A stretch of DNA of 18,172 nt from a virus (IMGVR_UViG_3300028591_000955:1-18172), one strand, 5' to 3'; shown: positions 1 through 18,172, numbered from the stretch's first letter. The notes: generated from the letters alone by a model not told the origin. Program-made: numbers and translations.

Positions 1-3000
1 ATTATATTCAATTGTTCGTGTTCCATATCTCCACTTGCCAAACCATAGCTTTCCGCAATACCAGTAATTTCAACTCTTAATCGTCCTAATTCTTTTGGAG
101 TATAGCCAAGATTAATAAAAGGAATACGTGCCATAAAGTTTTCAATATCAGGCATTGTTTCGCCTTCATATAAATAATGTTCTACACCATATTCATCTTT
201 ATATAAATGCCGTTGACCCGCATTTGGATTTTCTGTTGTTCGAACACCACCTCAATACATTCCGTATCCTGCGAAACCTTCGTGGCTTCAAATATCTCCA
301 AAATAAAGAACTTTTTGCTCGTAATCTTGGCTTTCTGGATCGTGCGGTTCTACTAAACTATCATAGATAAACTTAATACTGTCTAATTCTGCTAATTCAT
401 CAACAGAATACCATCTTTCTGGTTCGTATAAACGACCGCCACTACAACTAACTGGCTTATATCTATTAAACCATTCATTTGGCATATAATCAACAAGTTG
501 GACTTTATCTTCAAACTCATCAATTCGGAAAGTAAAAGTATCACTTGCGATTAAATGGTCTTCTCCAATTTCATCTCTAAAATATTCAACTGGGACATAG
601 ATAGGAGCAACTTGATAAACAATTTCATAACTTTCTTTTAAATCTTCTGGCTTATCAAGTCTTTCATCCATCTCATACCATTCAAAAGTTTGTCCGTCTA
701 AATAATATTTTTCTGGCTTAAAACGATTTTTATCTACATAAAAATCAATATATTCACCATCTCTAAAATCACTTTGATCTAATGAAACAGTATATTCTCC
801 AACAGGTTCATATGTTCTAATACCATAAATTTTTTTCTTAAACTTGATAGTTGTAGTATAAACCTTGATTTCTTCATCTATTGGATGATATACGATATCA
901 TATGGAGAACCCTCTACTACACGCGGTAAAGAAACTCTTCTACCAGTATACTCAAAATCTGTTTCGTATCCTGGTGGCTTATATTTATTTATTCTAACAA
1001 TATCTCCAAAAGAAGGAACTTGATAAAAATCTCTTTCAAGTAAAGTAATAGTTTCTTCTTTTAGAAGAGTTCTAACACCCGGTTCGTCTTCTTTTCAATA
1101 ATTTACTGAAATTGCGGTCGGGCGTTCTTCATAAATAACATTAAATGTTCTACCATTTAAATTATCAAAACTAACAATAAAATCATCATCAACCATTACT
1201 TTTCCATTATGGTAATAAGCGGGTTGATAACGATCGACTTGGAAACGTTCATATAAATCTAATTCATAAACTGTCTTAAACTCATCGCCACGCATCCAGT
1301 ATTGAATTGAGTTAATTAACTCTGAACCTTTGTAGTAATTAACTACATAAGAACCTATTTTATGTGCTAAATTAGTATCAACATAGCGAGTATCATCTCT
1401 TATGTTAAAACTATTTTTTCCAGTATAATCTTCAAAGAATAAACCAGTAATTTTATCATATAAACAATTGCTTGGAGCAACTTTATCTCCGATTTTATCA
1501 TAAAACTGAACTGGAATAAAATCTCTTACGAGCTGGCCGTCATAATAAATCTTACAACTATAAATACCAACATTAGAAATACCCGTATGTTTTTGAGGAG
1601 ACCCATTAGTGGCATTACAGAATAAATAAATCGGACAGCCAAGATTGGAAGATGATGCTGTCATTGGATAAGAATAGGTAAATACTGCTCTGCTTTCTTT
1701 ATTTGGGATATCTACTGTGTAAATACCACTATTTTCTGAAAAACTACGAGCTTCACTTTCTACAATAGCAACACCGTTGTGATTAGCAAAATCTGCTATA
1801 ATTTGTTCTGGACCGCCACTTTCTTGTCTGACAACAGATAATTCATAATTACCATCTCTAAAATCTGGTAATTCACCAATTCTACCGCCGGCACACGCTT
1901 CATACATATTGTCTAATATTCTTGTGCTTGTGCCAGTAGCAGTAAGATTTCTATTATGATATCTCATAAAGAAAGCAGAAGTTATTCCCAAGTTTTCTGA
2001 ATATCTCGCTGCTCCAAATAAATAACCATATTTTGGATTGGTTGCGGACATTGGCTGATCTGGATGGACTAATTCAACTTCCATTTGGATAGATAGTTTA
2101 GATGGGTCCGCAACAGATACGCCTGTATTGATACCAGCATTATTTAAAGTTCATTCTGGATGAAGAGCATTTAAATCTGCTGAACCCATATCATTATGTT
2201 CCAAAAATAAAAATCTATGTGGATATTCATAATCTTGTGGTTCACCAGCGTCTTCATTTAAAGTATAAACAACATTTAATGCTTCTAATACTACCAACGC
2301 TCCAAATGATACTAATCCTTGGTAATCTACAACACCATTCTCTGCGTTAATATTTTTATAGCGATTAAGATTTAATCCTAAATCAAATAAAGTTGTTTCA
2401 TCCGTAAAATCAATAACTCTATAAGAAATAACATCACTACCAACTCAATTTTCGTCCGAGATTGTATTATTATAATATCTGACTGGTGTTTCATAAGTTT
2501 TCGCTAAATAAATAACATCATAGCTGGACCCAAGCTCCTCAAACGTAAATAATGTGGAACCTATACCGCCATCGATGAAACCATCATCATAATATTCTGG
2601 CTTATACCGATTAAGATCAATTAACTGATTTAATCGAACACCGCCAATTGCTTCACTTTCATTTATAGTAATTAAACTTGTGTTGATGGTTGAATAAGCA
2701 GAAGCGAGTTCTTGCTTATATCTAACAATAATATTTTTGCTTCTATCTTGCGAAACAGGAATGTAGATTACTTCAAAAGGAGATGCGTTCAATAACGCAG
2801 ATAAACTCACTTCACCATTATAAAGTAATGATAAATCTACTTGATAGCCATCTGTTTTATGTTTGTTTAATGGAATGATTTCCCCTAATGTAGGTTCACC
2901 CACAAACATTAAATCATTGATTTCTATCGTTTCTGAAATTGGAGTATCAGTTTCTCCGTGCTCGTAATAACGAACGGTAATAGGATAATTTATAGGTTTA

Positions 3001-4388
3001 TAATAAACCTGTAAAACACTTCTATTAACCAAATCGTCAAAAGTGAGGATTTCCTCTGCTTTTAACATAACTCCATTTTCATAAAAAGTTGACTTATATT
3101 TATCAAGATTAAGATTTAAATCTTCAATTAAATTAAAACTATCTTCATACTTATCTTGATATGTTAGTGTTAAAACATCAGAGTTAATTCTTAACCAATT
3201 AGGATATTCACCATTATAATATTCAATATAAATATTTAAGGGTTTCTTGCTATATTTTACGTCATAATTTAATTCAATAGTATCATAAGAAATTAAATCT
3301 TGTAAATTATGATTTTCAATATATCCAGTATTAAAATATCTTATATTAGGAATATATAGATTTGGATTGATAATATCTTGTAAAGTCATTCCGTCAGCAA
3401 TATCACCTTGTTTTACAACAACGACAGAATGATTTACTACCTCAAAACTACCATCGTCTTTTTCTACTGAATAATTAACAACGACTGTTTTTTGCTGCTC
3501 GGATTGTATTTTATCATAATAAATCTGAATAGGGCTTGCCAATAAAAGATTTTCTACTGTTAATTCATCTTCAAAAATAACAGATGCTTTATATCCATTT
3601 GGCTTATATTCTTTTAGATTTATTAACTGTCCGATAGTGCGAGCATCTTGAACCTGTTTTGCGGTAAAAGAAAAGTCTTGTTCCAAAAGTTGGTTATAAT
3701 ATCCGCCTCCATCATTCATTAAATAAGAAAGTGTGATAGTATATCGTGTTGGTTCATAGTTAATAATTACCGCTCTGATATTCGCGAGATTTTCAAAAGT
3801 TAAATCAACCCCTCGCAAATTAGTAGCAACACCATCTTCATAATAATCCATTTTATATTTATTTACATCAATTCCAATAGAGGCCAATGTATCTCCTGTG
3901 CCCTTAAAGGCCGCATTACGAAGAGTAATTACATCGGTCGCAATTAAAGTTGTGCTATCGCGATAATATAAAATAGTTAATCTGGTGCTGTCAGTTAAAC
4001 GCTGATTTGTTGTATAAACTTCACGTTCACCTTTTGCGTAATCGCTGGTAAAATTATACCTAACAATAAAATTACCATTTTTTAATCGTTCAGTTGAGGC
4101 TTCCCCTTTCATTGTTAAGTTAAATGTTAAATTGATATCATCAAAACTTACACAAGAGGTTTTTAGTAATTGTGTTAATTTGCTAATTTTTATAAAAGCG
4201 TCTTCTTCATTTTGACCCAAAACTAAAAAAGCCAACTGAACTGGTCTAAAACGCTCTTGTTGGCGAATATAAGTAGGTTGAATATCGCCGTCTAATCAGT
4301 CTTGTTTTGTATCAACTGTATTGCTGTTTAACACTCTATCATACAACTGGATACCAAGACTGCTTAAATCAATACCATTTATTAGCAT
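1..4388 (-). CDS. Giant tail-tip protein whose 3' end runs off the window (>1,460 codons). Dit-like (distal tail protein) N-terminal domain fused to MucBP-like repeats and a central lectin/jelly-roll-like domain. Read with TGA=Trp.
   Basis: ATG at 4386-4388 with AGGAGG at 4395-4400. Track ORFs 2445..4235, 1095..2084 and 288..671 share one frame. I hand-translated the gaps (4236-4385, 2085-2444, 672-1094, 3-287) and found no TAA/TAG, only TGA at 4296, 2445, 2151, 1095, 288 and 252. The N-terminus MLINGIDLSSLGIQLYDRV...LAFLVLGQNEED...VSFDD resembles siphophage Dit N-domains (recollection, not a search). Confidence 0.75.
300..3986 (-). repeat. Array of >=11 divergent ~75-85 aa protein repeats inside the giant tail gene: about 7 copies at ~2210-3986 and 4 copies at ~300-1340, flanking a non-repeat domain at ~1340-2200
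   Basis: Recurrent core motif: VNKYKMDYYEDG, LKEYKPNGYKAS, LDKYKSTFYENG, LNKHKTDGYQVD, LNRYKPEYYDDG, LNRYKNINAENG, VDRYQPAYYHNG, INKYKPPGYETD, KNRFKPEKYYLDG, FNRYKPVSCSGG. Each copy starts with a Y.V.Y-type strand and ends with a Y[DEN]V.Y-type strand. This pattern is typical of MucBP-like beta-grasp adhesin repeats. Boundaries are approximate. Confidence 0.65.
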
Positions 4389-5844: not shown

Positions 5845-6024
5845 TTATGCCCCCTTTCGAGGGTCTTCTACTAAATGATAAGCCTCTATTGTATCAAACT
5901 TACCTAAAAATAAAAACTTAACATATAAATGCTGTTCTTTCCCGTCATTATCAAAATGAGGTTCTACTCAATCATAAACAAAGCCATCTGGGGCCTCATA
6001 TTTAGTAATTGTATGATTTATCAT
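5845..6024 (-). CDS. Hypothetical 59-aa protein, one in-frame TGA
   Basis: ATG at 6022-6024 follows GGAGG. Translation: MINHTITKYEAPDGFVYD[W]VEPHFDNDGKEQHLYVKFLFLGKFDTIEAYHLVEDPRKGA. TGA at 5968-5970, TAA at 5845-5847. Own translation. Confidence 0.5.
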
Positions 6025-6035
6025 ATTAACCTCCA

Positions 6036-6596
6036 TTAAATTATTTCAACTTCTGGAACATAGCCTCCTGGGCCTGAACCAGAACCACGAGACGAATAAT
6101 CTGCTCCTAACATAACTTTTGCGGTAATTATAACCGCACTTACAATCATTGTAGCCAACAATCCAATTAGCGAAAATCCGAAATCAATACCGCCCTCTTC
6201 ATCGTCTTCCATTTCTTCCATCTCTTCTTCATATCGCTCTTGTTCTTCTTCCATCGCTTCTTCCATAGCCATTTGTCATAACGGCATAGCTTCTCCAAGA
6301 GCCATTCTATAAGCTGGTTCAAAATAAGGCTGGGCGGCCATTTTCCAAGTTCCATATTCTACATACTGTGCGTATTCTGCTTCTGCGTAAGCTTCACATC
6401 AAGTATCATAACCTTCTGCTCCAATAGTGCTTTGTAAAAAACCGGTATCTACTGGAACTAATGTTGTTGCTATATCATAAAAGGTCTCTGCGAATGCCGC
6501 ACAACCCTCACTATAATCTGGTTCAATTCCATAGATAGGCGTTGCGTCCATAAAGCCCAAATCTTCAATTACATCAAAACCAACTCAAAGTCCCAT
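6036..6596 (-). CDS. HK97 gp10-like head-tail joining protein fused to an acidic stretch, a transmembrane-like helix and a Gly-rich tail (186 aa, three in-frame TGA)
   Basis: ATG at 6594-6596. Hand translation runs in frame through TGA at 6585, 6399 and 6276 into track ORF 6036..6272. The core ...LVPVDTGFLQSTIG...YAQYVEYGT.KMAAQPYFEPAY is the gp10-family signature. The C-terminus is EEAMEEEQERYEEEMEEMEDDEEGG, then IDFGFSLIGLLATMIVSAVIITAKVML, then SSRGSGSGPGG. Confidence 0.65.
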
Positions 6597-7477: not shown

Positions 7478-8080
7478 TTATTCTGCTGATGCCGCAGACC
7501 AAATACTATCGATTTCAGAGTTAGATAAATAACTTAAATTAACATTAGTATCGCCTAATTGTTCCCAAGCATTGTTAATATAAGCATATTCAGTATAAAC
7601 ATTTCCAGAAATACCAGAACTCTTTAATACTAAATAAATTACATTTGCTTCGCCAGTTGCTGGTAGTGTCTGAACGACTTCAAAATGAAAGCCTGTCATA
7701 CTTCCAACAGCAGAAGCAATATCACTCATTGTTGCGACTTTATTAGATGACGCATTATATGCTGTATTAAAAACAAGAGCATCTTGCTTTCCATCCCAAG
7801 CAGAAATCTTGGCACTTGTAATATCTTTTGCCGCACTGGCATTAAAAGCAGGTTCAGTTTCTGCTGGAATATCAGAAGCAGTAATAAAACCTACGTCATT
7901 CGTGAAAGCAGAAACATTTGAAGGAACAGTCGGAATAGTAGGAACGTTATCAAGTAAAGCATAATCTAACTTGCTACTTGATGTAATCGCATCCTGCTTG
8001 CCGTTTAAAGCCGCTTTAACCTTTCCCGCAAAATAACCAAGATGTTCGCCATCTAATAATTTATTATCATAAGCTGCCAT
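7478..8080 (-). CDS. Tail/neck fibre-like protein (200 aa)
   Basis: Intact track ORF with GGAGG upstream and a TAA stop. It contains VPTIPTVPSNVSAFTNDVGFITASDIP, a motif shared with 8320..9957 and common in phage fibre proteins. Confidence 0.65.
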   Translation of the reverse strand: MAAYDNKLLDGEHLGYFAGKVKAALNGKQDAITSSSKLDYALLDNVPTIPTVPSNVSAFTNDVGFITASDIPAETEPAFNASAAKDITSAKISAWDGKQDALVFNTAYNASSNKVATMSDIASAVGSMTGFHFEVVQTLPATGEANVIYLVLKSSGISGNVYTEYAYINNAWEQLGDTNVNLSYLSNSEIDSIWSAASAE

Positions 8081-8094
8081 ATATGTGTTTCCTC

Positions 8095-8316
8095 CTACAT
8101 ATTATTTCATATATCATCAATATCAGAATTGGTAAGTATTTCTCTACCAATCATATTCAAATTATAATCACCCACTGCTGGCATTACCCCTCCAACTCTA
8201 TTATTTCAAGAAATAACGCCATTTTCTCCGGGGTCTCCTTTTGGGCCAGCAGGACCGCGAATAGAAGTTATTTCAACCCATTCGCCATTAGCATTTTTAA
8301 TTTTTAATACTGCCAT
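8095..8316 (-). CDS. Small collagen-like protein (73 aa), two in-frame TGA
   Basis: ATG at 8314-8316 follows AGGAGG. Translation: MAVLKIKNANGEWVEITSIRGPAGPKGDPGENGVIS[W]NNRVGGVMPAVGDYNLNMIGREILTNSDIDDI[W]NNM. TGA at 8206 and 8107, TAG at 8095-8097. G-X-Y triplets fall at ~8218-8256. Own translation. Confidence 0.6.
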
Positions 8317-10961: not shown

Positions 10962-11747
10962 TTATTCTTTTGTAATCTTAATAACACGAGTTGCGTCTGT
11001 GAGAGCAACAAGGGCAACCTTACGAGTGTAAACAGTATTCTTACGAATGTTAGCATCTCTTTCAGGTTCAACCTCAACACCCTTCTTAATAAAGCAAGTA
11101 GTAGCCTGCTTTGTGAATAAGAAAGCGGTGTCTTCTGGAACGGCCTTTGAAACTACAACAGGAACGCCGCAAACAGAACCAATATAGCCAGTGCGGACAT
11201 TGGCTTCAACATAAGAAAGGTCATCTTTAAGAGCCTTTCTGAACTCTGCCTTTTCTGCTGGGTTAATAAGAAGTGTTAAGCCTTCTTCTTCTTCATAAGG
11301 ATACTTCGCGATAGCATCAACTACTGCGTCATAACTCCAATCTGAAACTGAAAGTGTAAGAGTAGCCTTACCAAGTTCAGCAATAACCTTATCTGTAAGG
11401 TCATTAACCATTGCTTCGGAAATAGCCATCATACCTCTATCAACTACGATAGGATCTGTCATTTCCTGCTCGTCAAACCAAGCAAACTTACCCTGGGTTG
11501 TGCCAACATCGTATTCTTTTGGTGTAAAACTAACTTCAAACTCTTTTGTGTTGCCCTGACCCATTGCTAACTCTTCAAGTTCGCCACTGGCTGTGTAAGT
11601 GTTAATAATTTTCTTCATTCCAGGATTTTCAGTAAGACTGTAATCTGCTGTAATGAAACTATTCATATCAATTTTTGTCTTTAAAAGACTTTCAAGTTTA
11701 TTTTCTAATACAAAGTTTTCATAAATTGTATGTGGTGATACTGCCAT
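10962..11747 (-). CDS. Major capsid protein (HK97 fold, 261 aa)
   Basis: Intact ORF with GGAGG upstream, positioned after the scaffold gene and followed by a strong terminator. Codon usage is visibly more GC-rich than in neighbouring genes. No TGA; both Trp codons are TGG. Confidence 0.8.
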   Translation of the reverse strand: MAVSPHTIYENFVLENKLESLLKTKIDMNSFITADYSLTENPGMKKIINTYTASGELEELAMGQGNTKEFEVSFTPKEYDVGTTQGKFAWFDEQEMTDPIVVDRGMMAISEAMVNDLTDKVIAELGKATLTLSVSDWSYDAVVDAIAKYPYEEEEGLTLLINPAEKAEFRKALKDDLSYVEANVRTGYIGSVCGVPVVVSKAVPEDTAFLFTKQATTCFIKKGVEVEPERDANIRKNTVYTRKVALVALTDATRVIKITKE

Positions 11748-15943: not shown

Positions 15944-16200
15944 TATAAAAATAAAACGTTTCCGTGCTGAACCAAGAGCATTCTTAATAAATACGATGTT
16001 CTTAAATCAAGATCTTTCATAACCTCAATTAACTTCGTTAATTCTTCTTGATCGTTAGTTGTCGGCATCTTGATAGAACGCATCTTAATTAAGGCTTGGT
16101 TAAATGCTGTTGCCGCATTCGCCGCCTCTTGGTAAGCATCTTCTACTTCTTTCATCTTTGCGTCAAAATCAATGACACCCTTTTTTTCAGTATCTGCCAT
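15943..16200 (-). CDS. Hypothetical 85-aa helical protein between terS and terL
   Basis: Intact ORF coupled by TAATG overlaps to both terS and terL. No recognisable motif. Confidence 0.5.
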   Translation of the reverse strand: MADTEKKGVIDFDAKMKEVEDAYQEAANAATAFNQALIKMRSIKMPTTNDQEELTKLIEVMKDLDLRTSYLLRMLLVQHGNVLFL

Positions 16201-16583
16201 TATAAGTCCTCCTCATTATCATTAAACGATATATCAATCGTATAGTTCATTTTATTTGCTTCAAGTCCAATAGACTTCGCCAATAATTCTAATGCTTTTA
16301 ACTTTGCGGAAGTATTATAAATAGGATCTCCCTTTTCCGCAAAAGCAATCTCGCTTAATTCTTGCGTAATACGCTTACTATCTATATTTATACTTTCATA
16401 TATTTCGTCTCTTCGCTGTGCGATATATTCTGCGATTTCGGGTTTCTTTAAGAGGGTATATGGATAAGATGGTTGTTTATTTCTACTATCTGCTCCAAAA
16501 GCCTCATAATACGCCTTGCGGGCGTTAAATCCATTTGAAATATATTTTTCCGCAAAGAGTTTCTGTTTTTGCGTCATTGCCAT
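16200..16583 (-). CDS. terS: Terminase small subunit (Terminase_2-like, 127 aa)
   Basis: Intact ORF with GGAGGGG upstream. The N-terminus MTQKQKLFAEKYISNGFNARKAYYEAF is the classic terS helix-turn-helix opening. Confidence 0.85.
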   Translation of the reverse strand: MAMTQKQKLFAEKYISNGFNARKAYYEAFGADSRNKQPSYPYTLLKKPEIAEYIAQRRDEIYESINIDSKRITQELSEIAFAEKGDPIYNTSAKLKALELLAKSIGLEANKMNYTIDISFNDNEEDL

Positions 16584-16596
16584 AATTCCCCTCCTA

Positions 16597-16620
16597 TAAA
16601 AAAACCGCTTTTAGCGGTTT
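16597..16620 (-). terminator. Intrinsic terminator immediately upstream of terS
   Basis: On the minus strand AAACCGCU (16620-16613) pairs with AGCGGUUU (16609-16602) across a 3-nt loop, followed by UUUUAU. It lies between the stop at 16619 and the terS ribosome-binding site. The stem is short, so strength is uncertain. Confidence 0.5.
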
Positions 16621-16780
16621 AAAATGAACCCCAGACCCAAGACGGTCTATCCATATCCATAGCGTCCCAATCTATCATCTCTGGGGTATAAACTTCCCCT
16701 GTTTCTATATCTTGCCAAAGGGGAACAACGTCTCTTTCTTGGACTTCTCCATCGTCCCCAATTACCATAATTTTAATCAT
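16619..16780 (-). CDS. Hypothetical 53-aa hyper-acidic, Trp-rich protein
   Basis: ATG at 16778-16780 follows AAGGAA. Translation: MIKIMVIGDDGEVQERDVVPLWQDIETGEVYTPEMIDWDAMDMDRPSWVWGSF, ending in TAA at 16619-16621. All four Trp codons are TGG. Own translation (below the track cut-off). Confidence 0.45.
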   Translation of the reverse strand: MIKIMVIGDDGEVQERDVVPLWQDIETGEVYTPEMIDWDAMDMDRPSWVWGSF

Positions 16781-16789
16781 AACTATTCC

Positions 16790-16972
16790 TTACCACTTAT
16801 GTTCTTCAAGCCATTCGTCTAATTCTTGCTTAATATTGAAGATTAAACTTGCTGTTTTATATTCTAAACTCTCATCTCCAATATCATCCCAGTAGTTAAG
16901 AAGCAATTCATCAATTTGCGGTTCTGGCATATTGCCTGACATAATCTGATTTAATAGTGTCATATTTTTCAT
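16790..16972 (-). CDS. Hypothetical ~57-60 aa hyper-acidic protein
   Basis: Intact track ORF. AAGGAG lies only 1 nt from the first ATG (16972), so the ATG at 16963 is the more likely start. About 13 Asp/Glu versus 4 Lys. All three Trp codons are TGG. Confidence 0.5.
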   Translation of the reverse strand: MKNMTLLNQIMSGNMPEPQIDELLLNYWDDIGDESLEYKTASLIFNIKQELDEWLEEHKW

Positions 16973-17005
16973 ACTCCTTATTCTTTTTCCTTACCTTACA
17001 TATAT

Positions 17006-17034
17006 ATTATAACATTTATTTTTTTAATTTTCAA
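17006..17034 (-). promoter_or_regulatory. Near-consensus sigma-70-type promoter with extended -10, reading toward the acidic ORFs and terS
   Basis: On the minus strand TTGAAA (17034-17029), a 17-nt spacer ending in TGT, then TATAAT (17011-17006). Confidence 0.6.
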
Positions 17035-17060
17035 TAATTCTTCTATAATCAAGCCTTTTG

Positions 17061-17183
17061 GTTGACGGAACCCGCCTTGGCGGGGGCCGTAGAAGATTTG
17101 CCGACGAAGTCGGGAACATCTTCGTATAGGGCCACTAATTAGGGGTAAGTGGGCGAAGCCCCAAATAAGGTCCCTATTAGGGA
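17061..17183. other. GC-rich, densely base-paired island: candidate structured ncRNA or cis-acting DNA site of unassigned family
   Basis: About 55% GC by hand count (66/120 over 17061-17180) in a much more AT-rich window. Nested helices: 17065-68/17087-90 encloses 17071-75/17080-84 (CUUG loop); 17092-97/17118-23 encloses 17101-05/17109-13 (GAA loop); 17126-31/17172-77 encloses 17151-54/17158-61 (GAA loop). No credible protein-coding reading. Confidence 0.5.
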
Positions 17184-17271
17184 TTTGAATTAAAAATGTC
17201 AATTTGTATGAATTAAAAATGTCAACTATCTTATGTTTGTATGAATTAAAAATGTCAATTTGTATGAATTA
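17184..17271. repeat. Iteron array: 3.5 direct copies of (TTTGTAT)GAATTAAAAATGTCAA
   Basis: GAATTAAAAATGTCAA occurs at 17187-17202, 17210-17225 and 17243-17258, with a partial copy GAATTA at 17266-17271. Spacings are 23, 33 and 23 bp (about 2, 3 and 2 helical turns). Confidence 0.8.
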
Positions 17272-17291
17272 GTTTTGTCCGCTAAACCGGT

Positions 17292-18002
17292 CTAAAAGAC
17301 GAAATGTTCTTCTTTTGGAATAATTGTTTCTTCTTCAAAAAATCTTCCTTTTTCTTCCGTAGTTTGTGCGACAAAAGTTAATAACTTTCTTGGAACTGGG
17401 TGAACCGAATGCTCTGTATCATAATAATCTTCATAATCAATAAAATGATTGGCTTTAAGGTTTTTTAAGATATTTTTTAAAACCATTTCAATTTGAGAAT
17501 TAGCACTACCACGAGTAGAAGCACTATAACCAAAAGCAACTTTTAATTCGTGTATTGTAAAGTCATATGTGCTACCCTCTTTTTCTTTCCACAAATATTT
17601 ATCCAATAAATAAACATACACTCGGACAGCCATTTTATTATAAACAGAAGTGAGTTCTTGTAATATTCCAGCAGAGACGACGCAATATTTGCTTATTTTA
17701 TCGTATGGAAAATAATATTGCTTTGTTTCCTCATCAAAAGCCATCAATTCATTTTCTTCGCTCATTAACACTTCAATTTTTCTGGAAATGGTGCGAGAGC
17801 TTTTCTTACCAAGTAAATCCGCTAATACAACTTTCGCATCTTGTAATGCCTTTTCTGTTAAGTATACTCGCTTTTTTACATTATCATAAGTAGCAATTCC
17901 TTGTAAATAACCGTATACAATGTCATCAATTTTAAACGACATAAAAGCACCTTCGGTAGGCATACGACGAGGGTGCTGGATTTCTTTCTTAATTATAGCC
18001 AT
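17292..18002 (-). CDS. Winged-helix DNA-binding protein, replication-initiator/replisome-organiser-like (236 aa)
   Basis: Track ORF 17292..18014 trimmed to the ATG at 18000-18002, which follows AAGGAG. The segment ...MAVRVYVYLLDKYLWKEKEGSTYDFTIHELKVAFGYS...LKNLKANHFIDY looks like a Rep/DnaD-type wHTH. Iterons lie immediately downstream. Function is inferred only. Confidence 0.4.
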   Translation of the reverse strand: MAIIKKEIQHPRRMPTEGAFMSFKIDDIVYGYLQGIATYDNVKKRVYLTEKALQDAKVVLADLLGKKSSRTISRKIEVLMSEENELMAFDEETKQYYFPYDKISKYCVVSAGILQELTSVYNKMAVRVYVYLLDKYLWKEKEGSTYDFTIHELKVAFGYSASTRGSANSQIEMVLKNILKNLKANHFIDYEDYYDTEHSVHPVPRKLLTFVAQTTEEKGRFFEEETIIPKEEHFVF

Positions 18003-18039
18003 ATTTATAAACACTCCTTATCTCATTTAGCCATCTCTA

Positions 18040-18141
18040 CTCCTTAAAGAGAAGGGGCAGGTGCTGAAATATGGTAGAAGGCACCTGCCCTTAAAGGAGT
18101 AATGACCTAATATAAATGGCTAACAAGTATTTCAGGTCATT
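18040..18141 (-). promoter_or_regulatory. Structured 5' leader/operator region of the wHTH gene
   Basis: A 10-bp GC-rich stem (18055-18064/18081-18090, 16-nt loop) is extended by CTCCTTAAAG (18040-18049) pairing with TTAAAGGAG (18091-18099). A second inverted repeat, AATGACCT (18101-18108) / AGGTCATT (18134-18141), overlaps the predicted transcription start. Confidence 0.45.
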
Positions 18142-18144
18142 ATT

Positions 18145-18172
18145 ATTATAACAAAAAAATTATTCTATGTCA
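18145..18172 (-). promoter_or_regulatory. Sigma-70-type promoter with extended -10; the -35 is cut by the window edge
   Basis: On the minus strand (T)TGACA (18172-18168, first base outside the window), a 17-nt spacer ending in TGT, then TATAAT (18150-18145). Confidence 0.5.

Follow-up and report, generated by a model that had tools for sequence, protein, structure and literature searches.

Does a phage that reads TGA as tryptophan (Trp) divide its genes, at a transcription terminator, into an early block readable in the standard code and a late recoded block? The question is raised by the viral contig IMGVR_UViG_3300028591_000955:1-18172 (hereafter the window, meaning the whole stretch of 18,172 nt that was analysed), in which three genes preceding a hairpin terminator in front of terS, those of a winged helix-turn-helix (wHTH) protein and of two small acidic open reading frames (sORF60 and sORF53), have no TGA among their Trp codons. 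A model working from the sequence alone had taken this as a possible early/late code boundary, as expected if recoding acts as a timer of late genes (the original prediction). That interpretation was partly supported. That wHTH and the small acidic ORFs use only TGG is a real pattern, kept by selection, and genes that would be needed first are free of TGA in four lineages, but the avoidance is gene by gene and does not follow transcription units or position relative to the terminator. The features concerned are the following:

17292..18002, minus strand: wHTH gene, 236 aa, with TGG as its single Trp codon, located where the family has its one invariant Trp
16790..16972, minus strand: sORF60 (57-60 aa), net charge about -9, three Trp codons, all TGG
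16619..16780, minus strand: sORF53 (53 aa), net charge about -10, four Trp codons, all TGG, C-terminus PSWVWGSF conserved
16594..16620, minus strand: intrinsic-terminator-like hairpin with U7, between sORF53 and the Shine-Dalgarno (SD) sequence of terS
16200..16583, minus strand: terS (Terminase_2), without Trp codons
14705..15943, minus strand: terL, the first downstream gene with TGA (3 TGA, 4 TGG)

To begin with the counts, those of the original prediction were reproduced exactly: none of the eight Trp codons upstream of the hairpin was TGA (TGA/TGG of 0/1 in wHTH, 0/3 in the 60-aa ORF and 0/4 in the 53-aa ORF), while 23 of the 52 Trp codons from terL onward were TGA (23 TGA, 29 TGG), and two late genes, listed below, were TGA-free as had been noted. 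For the contrast, to which a chance of about 1% had been attached, the window alone gave a Fisher p-value of 0.019 and a probability of 0.015 that the first eight Trp codons are all TGG. However, permutation in gene order produced at least eight successive TGG codons somewhere in 34% of the shuffles. Furthermore, seven of the eight upstream TGG codons sit in the two tiny ORFs. From the window alone, the TGG-only block is thus weak evidence, and the gene-by-gene tabulation of a full sister genome did not separate the two classes of genes either (3 TGA and 9 TGG in non-structural genes vs. 46 and 45 in structural genes, p = 0.13). The late genes used for comparison are:

10962..11747, minus strand: major capsid protein (MCP), late gene, TGA-free (0/2); avoidance of recoded codons in head genes runs through the whole family
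7478..8080, minus strand: fibre-like 200-aa gene (fibre200), late, TGA-free (0/3), as is its homologue in L137 (0/3)
1..4388, minus strand: giant tail protein, N-terminal 1462 of 2990 aa, in the tape-measure position

The evidence that carries the finding comes from diverged relatives. By its wHTH protein, a TGA-recoded sub-lineage can be delimited that comprises four branches: A (the window together with the sister genomes), B (L137, with 63% wHTH identity), C (L140, 79%) and D (L141, L145 and L135, 60%). A scan of viral contigs with the wHTH alignment returned four loci only, and was biased in that Trp in the peptide pattern was back-translated as TGG. Synonymous divergence (dS) of wHTH between branches ranged from 1.0 to 1.7. 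In the giant gene, where 44 homologous Trp sites could be compared between A and B, the choice of TGA or TGG was unassociated (odds ratio 1.27, p = 1.0), with TGA in both at 19 sites, in A only at 5, in B only at 15, and TGG in both at 5. Because dS is saturated and codon states at homologous sites are unrelated, the four branches are effectively independent samples. Across them, TGA/TGG counts were 0/8 in wHTH, 0/10 in sORF53 and 0/3 in sORF60, compared with 10/4 in an HNH endonuclease gene, 3/0 in a methyltransferase gene and 46/53 in the non-giant background. Thus, wHTH and sORF53 alone had TGA at 0 of 18 Trp codons, and at 0 of 21 together with sORF60. The three genes differed from HNH plus methyltransferase (13 TGA, 4 TGG) with p = 4e-7, and from the non-giant background with p = 1e-5; for wHTH alone against HNH plus methyltransferase, the p-value was 5e-4. 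A conservative count without sORF60, which is an orphan, and without the sORF53 copy of lineage D, which is only partly independent, was 0/15 and gave p = 3e-4, or 0.007 when corrected for 21 gene families. On the other hand, the giant gene was the most TGA-rich (6/11 Trp codons in the window, 27/50 in the sister and 36/48 in L137; 55-77%). The comparison of blocks in the TGA lineages gave 11/49 vs. 87/208 (p = 0.014), with p = 0.16 for complete blocks only. Moreover, in relatives in which TAG is the recoded codon (hereafter the TAG-recoded cousins), the wHTH homologues and an integrase contained 0 TAG among 28 Gln codons (p = 0.008).

The reading of TGA on which these counts depend is shown by sequence comparison to be Trp and not Gly. 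When the window was compared with genomes 98% identical to it, the same codons showed exchanges of TGA and TGG in both directions, and TGA was never replaced by any other codon. In particular, TGA in the window corresponded to TGG in the sisters at MuF codons 156 and 194, and the reverse was found at fibre codon 356 and p186 codon 84. Alignments of terL had W in the TGA columns, W165 and W366 being invariant among homologues, and the sister HNH gene had TGA at its conserved NLxW motif. Translation table 11 fragments terL, the portal, MuF, the fibres and the giant protein, and long ORFs reappear once TGA is read as sense, the longest one in the window growing from 596 aa to 1462 aa. The stops in TGA-state genomes were TAA (42) or TAG (15), and the only possible TGA stop in the lineage was that of a 3-codon leader mini-ORF ahead of wHTH.

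A boundary at the terminator was contradicted by the same relatives. A composite genome of 25,547 bp (COMP) was assembled from two sister contigs (L001 and L007) 97-98% identical to the window. In it, and in L140 and L141, a 185-aa methyltransferase gene (phrog_799 DNA methyltransferase, E = 1e-30, in the sister genomes) lies between wHTH and the small ORFs, thus upstream of the terminator, with an in-frame TGA at codon 48 conserved in all three. It was found at 4167-4724 in L001, 3812-4192 in L140 and 3472-4029 in L141, and was precisely absent from the window, L009, L135, L137 and L145. The upstream block of the window looks clean because this gene has been deleted, and the deletion left a remnant overlapped by the promoter of the small ORFs:

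17020..17053, minus strand: 3' remnant of the methyltransferase gene, still encoding LIIEELLK
17006..17034, minus strand: sORF promoter, TTGAAA - 17 nt - TATAAT preceded by TG, with 11 of 12 consensus matches; it overlaps the methyltransferase 3' end, and L135 and L145 have an equivalent promoter

Directly upstream of wHTH, the HNH gene had the highest TGA content of the small genes (10 of 14 Trp codons); the late transcript probably ends with this gene, since the wHTH promoter overlaps its last codons. Downstream of the terminator, the late genes fibre200, MCP and p100 were strictly TGA-free (0/11, p = 7e-4). In L064 and L065, which belong to another TGA-recoded clade, the invariant Trp of wHTH was encoded by TGA and no terminator preceded terS. 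The TAG-recoded cousins had more recoded codons in the block before terS (95/328, 29%) than in structural genes (507/2647, 19%), with pre-terS TAGs internal in HNH and a small HTH gene. Furthermore, a second force is at work, as abundant late proteins (MCP, connectors and one fibre) also avoid the recoded codon: in the TAG-recoded cousins, the head genes (MCP, scaffold and connectors) had TAG at 19/375 (5%), as against 488/2272 (about 21%) for the rest of the structural genes (p = 5e-17).

The explanation favoured here, and held tentatively, is that the recoded codon is avoided, gene by gene, in establishment and leader genes that are translated before UGA is decoded as Trp or while it is decoded poorly. 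The wHTH, sORF60 and sORF53 genes would then be those to be translated at the start of infection or during establishment. The wHTH protein would be an iteron-type initiator, with a consensus promoter and plasmid-like leader-peptide control, that takes the role played by the integrase in integrating cousins. The two small ORFs, being promoter-proximal, would give the first products of the late transcription unit, and the conserved terminator would attenuate entry into terS and the structural genes. In a cell in which UGA is still a stop, only wHTH, the small ORFs and Trp-free proteins would be completed, whereas the sister methyltransferase would end at codon 48, the sister HNH protein at codon 107 and terL of the window at codon 80. 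The absence of TGA from wHTH and sORF53 in four lineages fits the idea of Borges et al. (bioRxiv 10.1101/2021.08.26.457843; Nat Microbiol 2022) that the standard code still suffices to read establishment genes. Both the wHTH and the sORF units stand behind consensus-type promoters.

Several points weigh against this explanation. The rule for wHTH is not general, given the TGA at its invariant Trp in L064 and L065. The methyltransferase, with its conserved TGA, lies upstream of the terminator and is probably carried on the wHTH transcript. Selection for efficiency alone can produce strict avoidance, as the 0/11 in late genes and the 5% in head genes of the TAG-recoded cousins demonstrate. No code-switch factor was encoded, a tRNA, a release factor and a synthetase having been sought in the genome. 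Moreover, the samples are small (wHTH provides 8 Trp codons over four lineages), the lineage-D copy of sORF53 is only partly independent of that in the window (dS 0.35), and sORF60 is an orphan and a putative coding gene. Finally, the predicted assignment of wHTH as a Rep protein is not established, its Pfam match being sub-threshold and its fold matches weak.

A further possibility concerns what switches the code. Complete genomes of about 25.5 kb without a tRNA, release factor or synthetase still need efficient decoding of UGA or UAG, so that a code-switch product might be sought among the few TGA-free ones. One of these (sORF60 or sORF53, both of them highly acidic, Trp-rich orphans behind the near-consensus promoter and ahead of the terminator), or the conserved structured element beside the iterons, might switch the host to UGA = Trp without a tRNA, for example by acting on host release factor 2 or tRNA-Trp; this is a long shot. 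If it were true, the terminator-gated leader would be the first step of the timer.

The main rival, albeit a rather unlikely one, is that efficiency alone explains the pattern: UGA would be decoded throughout infection, but less well than UGG, and genes that are expressed fast or abundantly would be purged of TGA. The wHTH gene and the small ORFs would then behave like the capsid, connector and fibre genes, and the terminator would be an ordinary attenuator. The strict avoidance in fibre200, MCP and p100, the depletion in the head genes of the TAG-recoded cousins, the high TGA content of the low-copy giant tail protein and the near-perfect promoters of both focus units are all consistent with it. 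However, an initiator under leader-peptide control is normally of low abundance, and yet wHTH has 0/8 beside 10/14 in HNH; integrases, which are also of low abundance, avoid the recoded codon too, both in the cousins analysed here and in the preprint of Borges et al.

A host that natively uses genetic code 4, such as a rumen member of the Mycoplasmatales, would require no switch and no timer, and the differences between genes would reflect codon preference or history. This is unlikely, although several observations would suit it. The complete 25.5-kb genome lacks a tRNA, a release factor and an aminoacyl-tRNA synthetase, 27 TGA codons in a 2990-aa protein need efficient decoding, TGA is never a stop codon (the mini-ORF aside), the giant gene drifts freely between TGA and TGG, and wHTH of L064 and L065 needs TGA to be decoded. 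The absence of a tRNA was consistent across searches with default and intron-tolerant settings of the window, the circularised composite and all relatives of about 25 kb, so that the suppressor tRNA which the original prediction proposed to locate was not found in any of them. Likewise, no release factor or aminoacyl-tRNA synthetase domain appeared in the genome gene lists. Relaxed ARAGORN settings returned 14 tRNA candidates, judged to be noise, as shuffled genomes gave 2-13. Among the candidates rejected was an antisense one with 'tca' in the giant gene (about 1098-1166, plus strand), whose acceptor stem is all A-T and which in L137 is conserved no further than expected at the coding level.

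Against a native code-4 host stands the family itself. The terL relatives number thousands, with contigs topping out at about 24-27 kb, and members with terL 58-72% identical to that of the window fell, by their in-frame stops, into three states: standard, TAG-recoded and TGA-recoded. Thus, at comparable terL distances there are siblings that keep the standard code and stop at TGA, and others that read TAG as Gln. The TAG-recoded members had 4-13 TAG per terL, aligned mainly with Gln, and TGA was a commoner stop in them (72/221 stops). Among the terL family loci L055-L092 and L143, standard, TAG = Gln and TGA = Trp members all occurred without a tRNA at about 25 kb. To our knowledge, no bacterium uses TAG for Gln. 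Among bacteria, UGA is known to be read as Trp in Mycoplasmatales, a few Patescibacteriota and insect endosymbionts, whereas a scan of GTDB, with one genome per species, placed relatives only in standard-code Bacillota/Clostridia-type genomes and metagenome-assembled genomes (MAGs), plus one Gastranaerophilaceae-binned contig, and none in Mycoplasmatales. In the TAG-recoded cousin L070, a tRNA-Thr(CGU) gene (about 6021-6096) lies between a tail gene and a 323-aa tyrosine-recombinase-like gene, itself with 0 TAG among 15 Gln codons; an integrase beside tRNA-Thr recalls the Oscillospiraceae prophages of Borges et al. Moreover, lasting gene-specific avoidance would be unexpected if both codons were fully synonymous. 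A host with code 4 should therefore not be assumed by default, and it ceased to be the leading view once the terL relatives had proved to be standard-, TAG- or TGA-coded.

A strict boundary, in which the terminator at 16594-16620 divides a standard-readable block upstream from a recoded block downstream, is very unlikely. It would agree with the window, where all upstream Trp codons are TGG and TGA begins at terL, and with the retention of the terminator in the sub-lineage; however, it is already contradicted by the sister genomes with their methyltransferase, lost from the window by deletion, and equally by the TGA-rich HNH gene upstream of wHTH, by the TGA-free late genes downstream, and by L064, L065 and the TAG-recoded cousins, which have neither the terminator nor a clean block. 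Chance combined with shared ancestry, by which the eight TGG codons in three small genes would be an inherited sampling fluctuation, is scarcely credible and was given up after the saturation test and the four-lineage counts: the 34% of window shuffles and the p-value of 0.13 in the full sister genome would allow it, but codon states are randomised between lineages at dS of at least 1, and counts of 0/15 to 0/21 give p-values of 3e-4 to 1e-5 that survive the correction for 21 families.

The elements on which the favoured explanation draws, avoidance in genes translated early, can now be described. The hairpin terminator reported by the original prediction is present, with an 8-bp stem (AAACCGCU/AGCGGUUU), a 3-nt loop and U7. 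Its predicted energy was -9.3 kcal/mol (z = -2.2), with 4 of 8 base pairs GC, and it lies 12 nt before the terS SD sequence. The stem was kept in the sisters (loop with one additional A), in L137 (another loop) and in L145 (a G.U-compatible change), that is, in branches A, B and D, while no such terminator was found ahead of terS in L064, L065 or the TAG-recoded cousins. On these features, it is a plausible, modest intrinsic terminator. As for the leader ORFs, sORF53 was represented by four clusters only in a database of 5.8 billion proteins, and is therefore a lineage-restricted orphan; its ratio of nonsynonymous to synonymous divergence (dN/dS) of 0.12-0.43 indicates purifying selection, which makes it a real gene. 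Its Trp codons were TGG only in L135, L137 and L145. In contrast, sORF60 matched nothing but itself among 1.84 billion representative proteins and was absent from lineages B and D. A second hairpin (16632-16649, minus strand, AGACC/GGUCU) was also observed in the 3' end of sORF53, where it spans part of TGG GTC TGG, so that one sORF53 TGG codon may be under constraint at the nucleotide level.

Upstream, the wHTH gene is surrounded by the following elements:

18145..18172, minus strand: wHTH promoter, (T)TGACA - 17 nt - TGnTATAAT, the first T of the -35 hexamer lying beyond the window edge
18023..18141, minus strand: wHTH leader, with a hairpin, an anti-SD-like ACUCCUUU, a GC hairpin with a U-run, and a mini-ORF with its own SD
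17186..17284, no strand assigned: iteron-like direct repeats, 3-4 copies of about 23 nt (TTGACATTTTTAATTCATACAAA) directly after the wHTH stop
17054..17185, minus strand: CCTAATAG boxes followed by three GC-rich hairpins, predicted fold -47.6 kcal/mol (z = -2.9)

The full promoter consensus (TTGACA-17-TGnTATAAT) could be read in COMP, L137 and L141, and the leader architecture was conserved in L137, L140 and L141. The mini-ORF, ATG GCT AAA TGA at 18034..18023, lies just before the wHTH SD and has 3-6 codons across relatives. That its TGA might act as a 'code sensor' was considered and found unsupported, as TGA occurs there in the window lineage only, with TAA in L140 and L141. The wHTH protein is a probable iteron-binding replication initiator, on the basis of a sub-threshold match to Pfam Rep3_N (PF01051; E = 0.0019, 19 bits, below the 22.4 cut-off), a structure model with two winged-helix-like domains in tandem (predicted local distance difference test score, pLDDT, 69) and the adjacent co-varying repeats. 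A fold search gave weak full-length matches to pi (2nra), RepE (2z9o) and a Rep-DUE complex (8ac8), with template-modelling (TM) scores of 0.33-0.35 and E > 0.05, and a profile search of the PDB gave nothing relevant. Repeat sequences differ from lineage to lineage in step with the wHTH protein (window, L135, L137, L143 and L145), which looks like Rep-iteron co-variation and would mean a plasmid-like origin in a complete siphophage genome. The CCTAATAG box was found in 2-4 copies, kept in L135, L137, L145 and even the TAG-recoded L143, and the layout of the three hairpins was kept among L135, L137, L143 and L145 with different stem sequences. The boxes and hairpins are probably part of the origin region; the element as such could be an origin, a single-strand initiation signal or a small RNA, and it had no Rfam match and was not a tRNA. 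At gathering thresholds, Rfam gave no match in the window or L007, and the region around the TGG-only genes gave chance-level matches only.

Known systems resemble this one in part. Iteron initiators (Rep_3, RepE and pi) share the predicted tandem winged helices and the 3-4 co-varying repeats of about 23 nt adjoining the gene, and those with leader-peptide control share a mini-ORF with its own SD just before the rep SD; on the other hand, the Rep3_N match here is under threshold, the TM scores are 0.33-0.35 and the gene lies within a complete siphophage genome. In the lambda PR'-tR' late operon, a constitutive promoter is followed by a short leader and by a terminator that is overcome by antitermination. 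Likewise, a strong promoter, a short leader and an intrinsic terminator stand here directly before the packaging and structural operon, but the leader codes for one or two small proteins, no antiterminator was identified, and the terminator is so modest that simple partial read-through is equally possible.

As regards recoded phages, Borges et al. (10.1101/2021.08.26.457843) reported that integrases and replication genes avoid recoded stops, that a suppressor tRNA occurs in only 35-40% of recoded phages (35% of code-4 phages), and that the Topaz clade has genomes of 22 +/- 3 kb, Firmicutes hosts, prophages beside tRNA-Thr and integrases free of recoded stops. Like those phages, the present ones have a small genome, mix standard, TAG and TGA codes among close relatives, concentrate recoded codons in structural genes, lack a detectable suppressor tRNA, as do most of those phages, and keep establishment genes clean (the integrase there, the Rep-like wHTH and the L070 integrase here). 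Unlike in those phages, two orphan acidic leader ORFs also avoid TGA, and the non-structural block of the TAG-recoded cousins is not depleted in recoded codons. The family was set beside Topaz by description only, given its genome of about 25.5 kb, its mixed codes and the L070 integrase beside tRNA-Thr; however, the window lineage has no integrase, with a Rep-like gene and iteron-like repeats instead. In crAss-like and Agate phages, whose replication genes keep the standard code and whose structural and lysis modules are recoded, the first-needed genes are likewise readable by a naive host, but their genomes measure 100-200 kb and are clearly modular, and they often encode suppressor tRNAs and in some cases release factors, while the 'early' set here consists of 2-3 tiny genes among recoded ones, without a tRNA. 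Finally, phages of Mycoplasma and Spiroplasma, with code-4 hosts, share the genome-wide TGA = Trp, the lack of TGA stops and of any need for a suppressor tRNA, but not the standard and TAG = Gln members, the Bacillota/Clostridia prophage affinities or the gene-specific avoidance.

Clean establishment and replication genes, mixed codes within clades and the frequent lack of a suppressor tRNA have thus been published already. What is new here is an unusually compact case, with a Rep-like gene instead of an integrase, orphan acidic leader ORFs that also avoid the recoded codon, and complete tRNA-less genomes in all three coding states. Reassignment of stop codons is thought to hold back late proteins, and the evidence comes mostly from large phages and integrases. 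In this family, with about 30 genes, complete genomes and three codes in close relatives, the genes that are kept without the recoded codon form a very small and clearly delimited set. Such a small system makes it testable whether timing or translation efficiency drives the avoidance, and what enables UGA or UAG to be decoded without a phage tRNA. From a methodological point of view, a marginal codon count within one genome becomes rigorously testable once diverged relatives show randomised codon states.

Regarding the genome as a whole, the window is about 71% of a siphophage genome of about 25.5 kb with TGA = Trp and no tRNA, the source being probably rumen metagenomes. TGA-free proteins of the window were found again on contigs of 25.5-25.7 kb from several samples, whose start points differ and whose ends overlap, which indicates that the genome is complete and circular or circularly permuted. 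Every credible gene of the window lies on the minus strand, and the composite, with about 30 genes in the genome, has a single coding strand. From position 18002 down, the order is wHTH, sORF60, sORF53, the hairpin with its U-tract and terS, followed by an 85-aa gene, terL, an SPP1-type portal, a MuF-like gene, the scaffold and MCP, and then by connectors, fibres, tail genes and the first 1462 aa of the giant tail protein. In the composite, the 2990-aa giant protein is followed by Dit, a tail protein, the 63-aa HTH-like p63b, the HNH endonuclease (NUMOD4, HNH_3 and NUMOD1 domains) and wHTH, after which come the 185-aa methyltransferase, both small ORFs and terS again. A megablast search with 8 kb of the window gave no match among 50,697 GenBank phages. 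The giant tail protein occupies about 35% of the 25.5-kb genome; its N-terminal 1462 aa matched no Pfam family, and repeat units of about 90 aa were discerned in them by eye.

Two further observations were made. The 73-aa gene at 8095-8316 (minus strand) and the 200-aa gene at 7478-8080 (minus strand) are both fibre-like and share the terminal motif S[ED]IDxIW, the Trp of which is TGA in the former and TGG in the latter, these two internal paralogues being a further indication of TGA = Trp. Moreover, three Bacillota MAG contigs of 42-156 kb (L015, L017 and L019), more distant relatives with 50-52% terL identity and in-frame TAGs in terL, have a tRNA gene with anticodon CUA a few kb upstream; they probably represent prophages recoded at TAG, or else large phages that bring a suppressor tRNA of their own.

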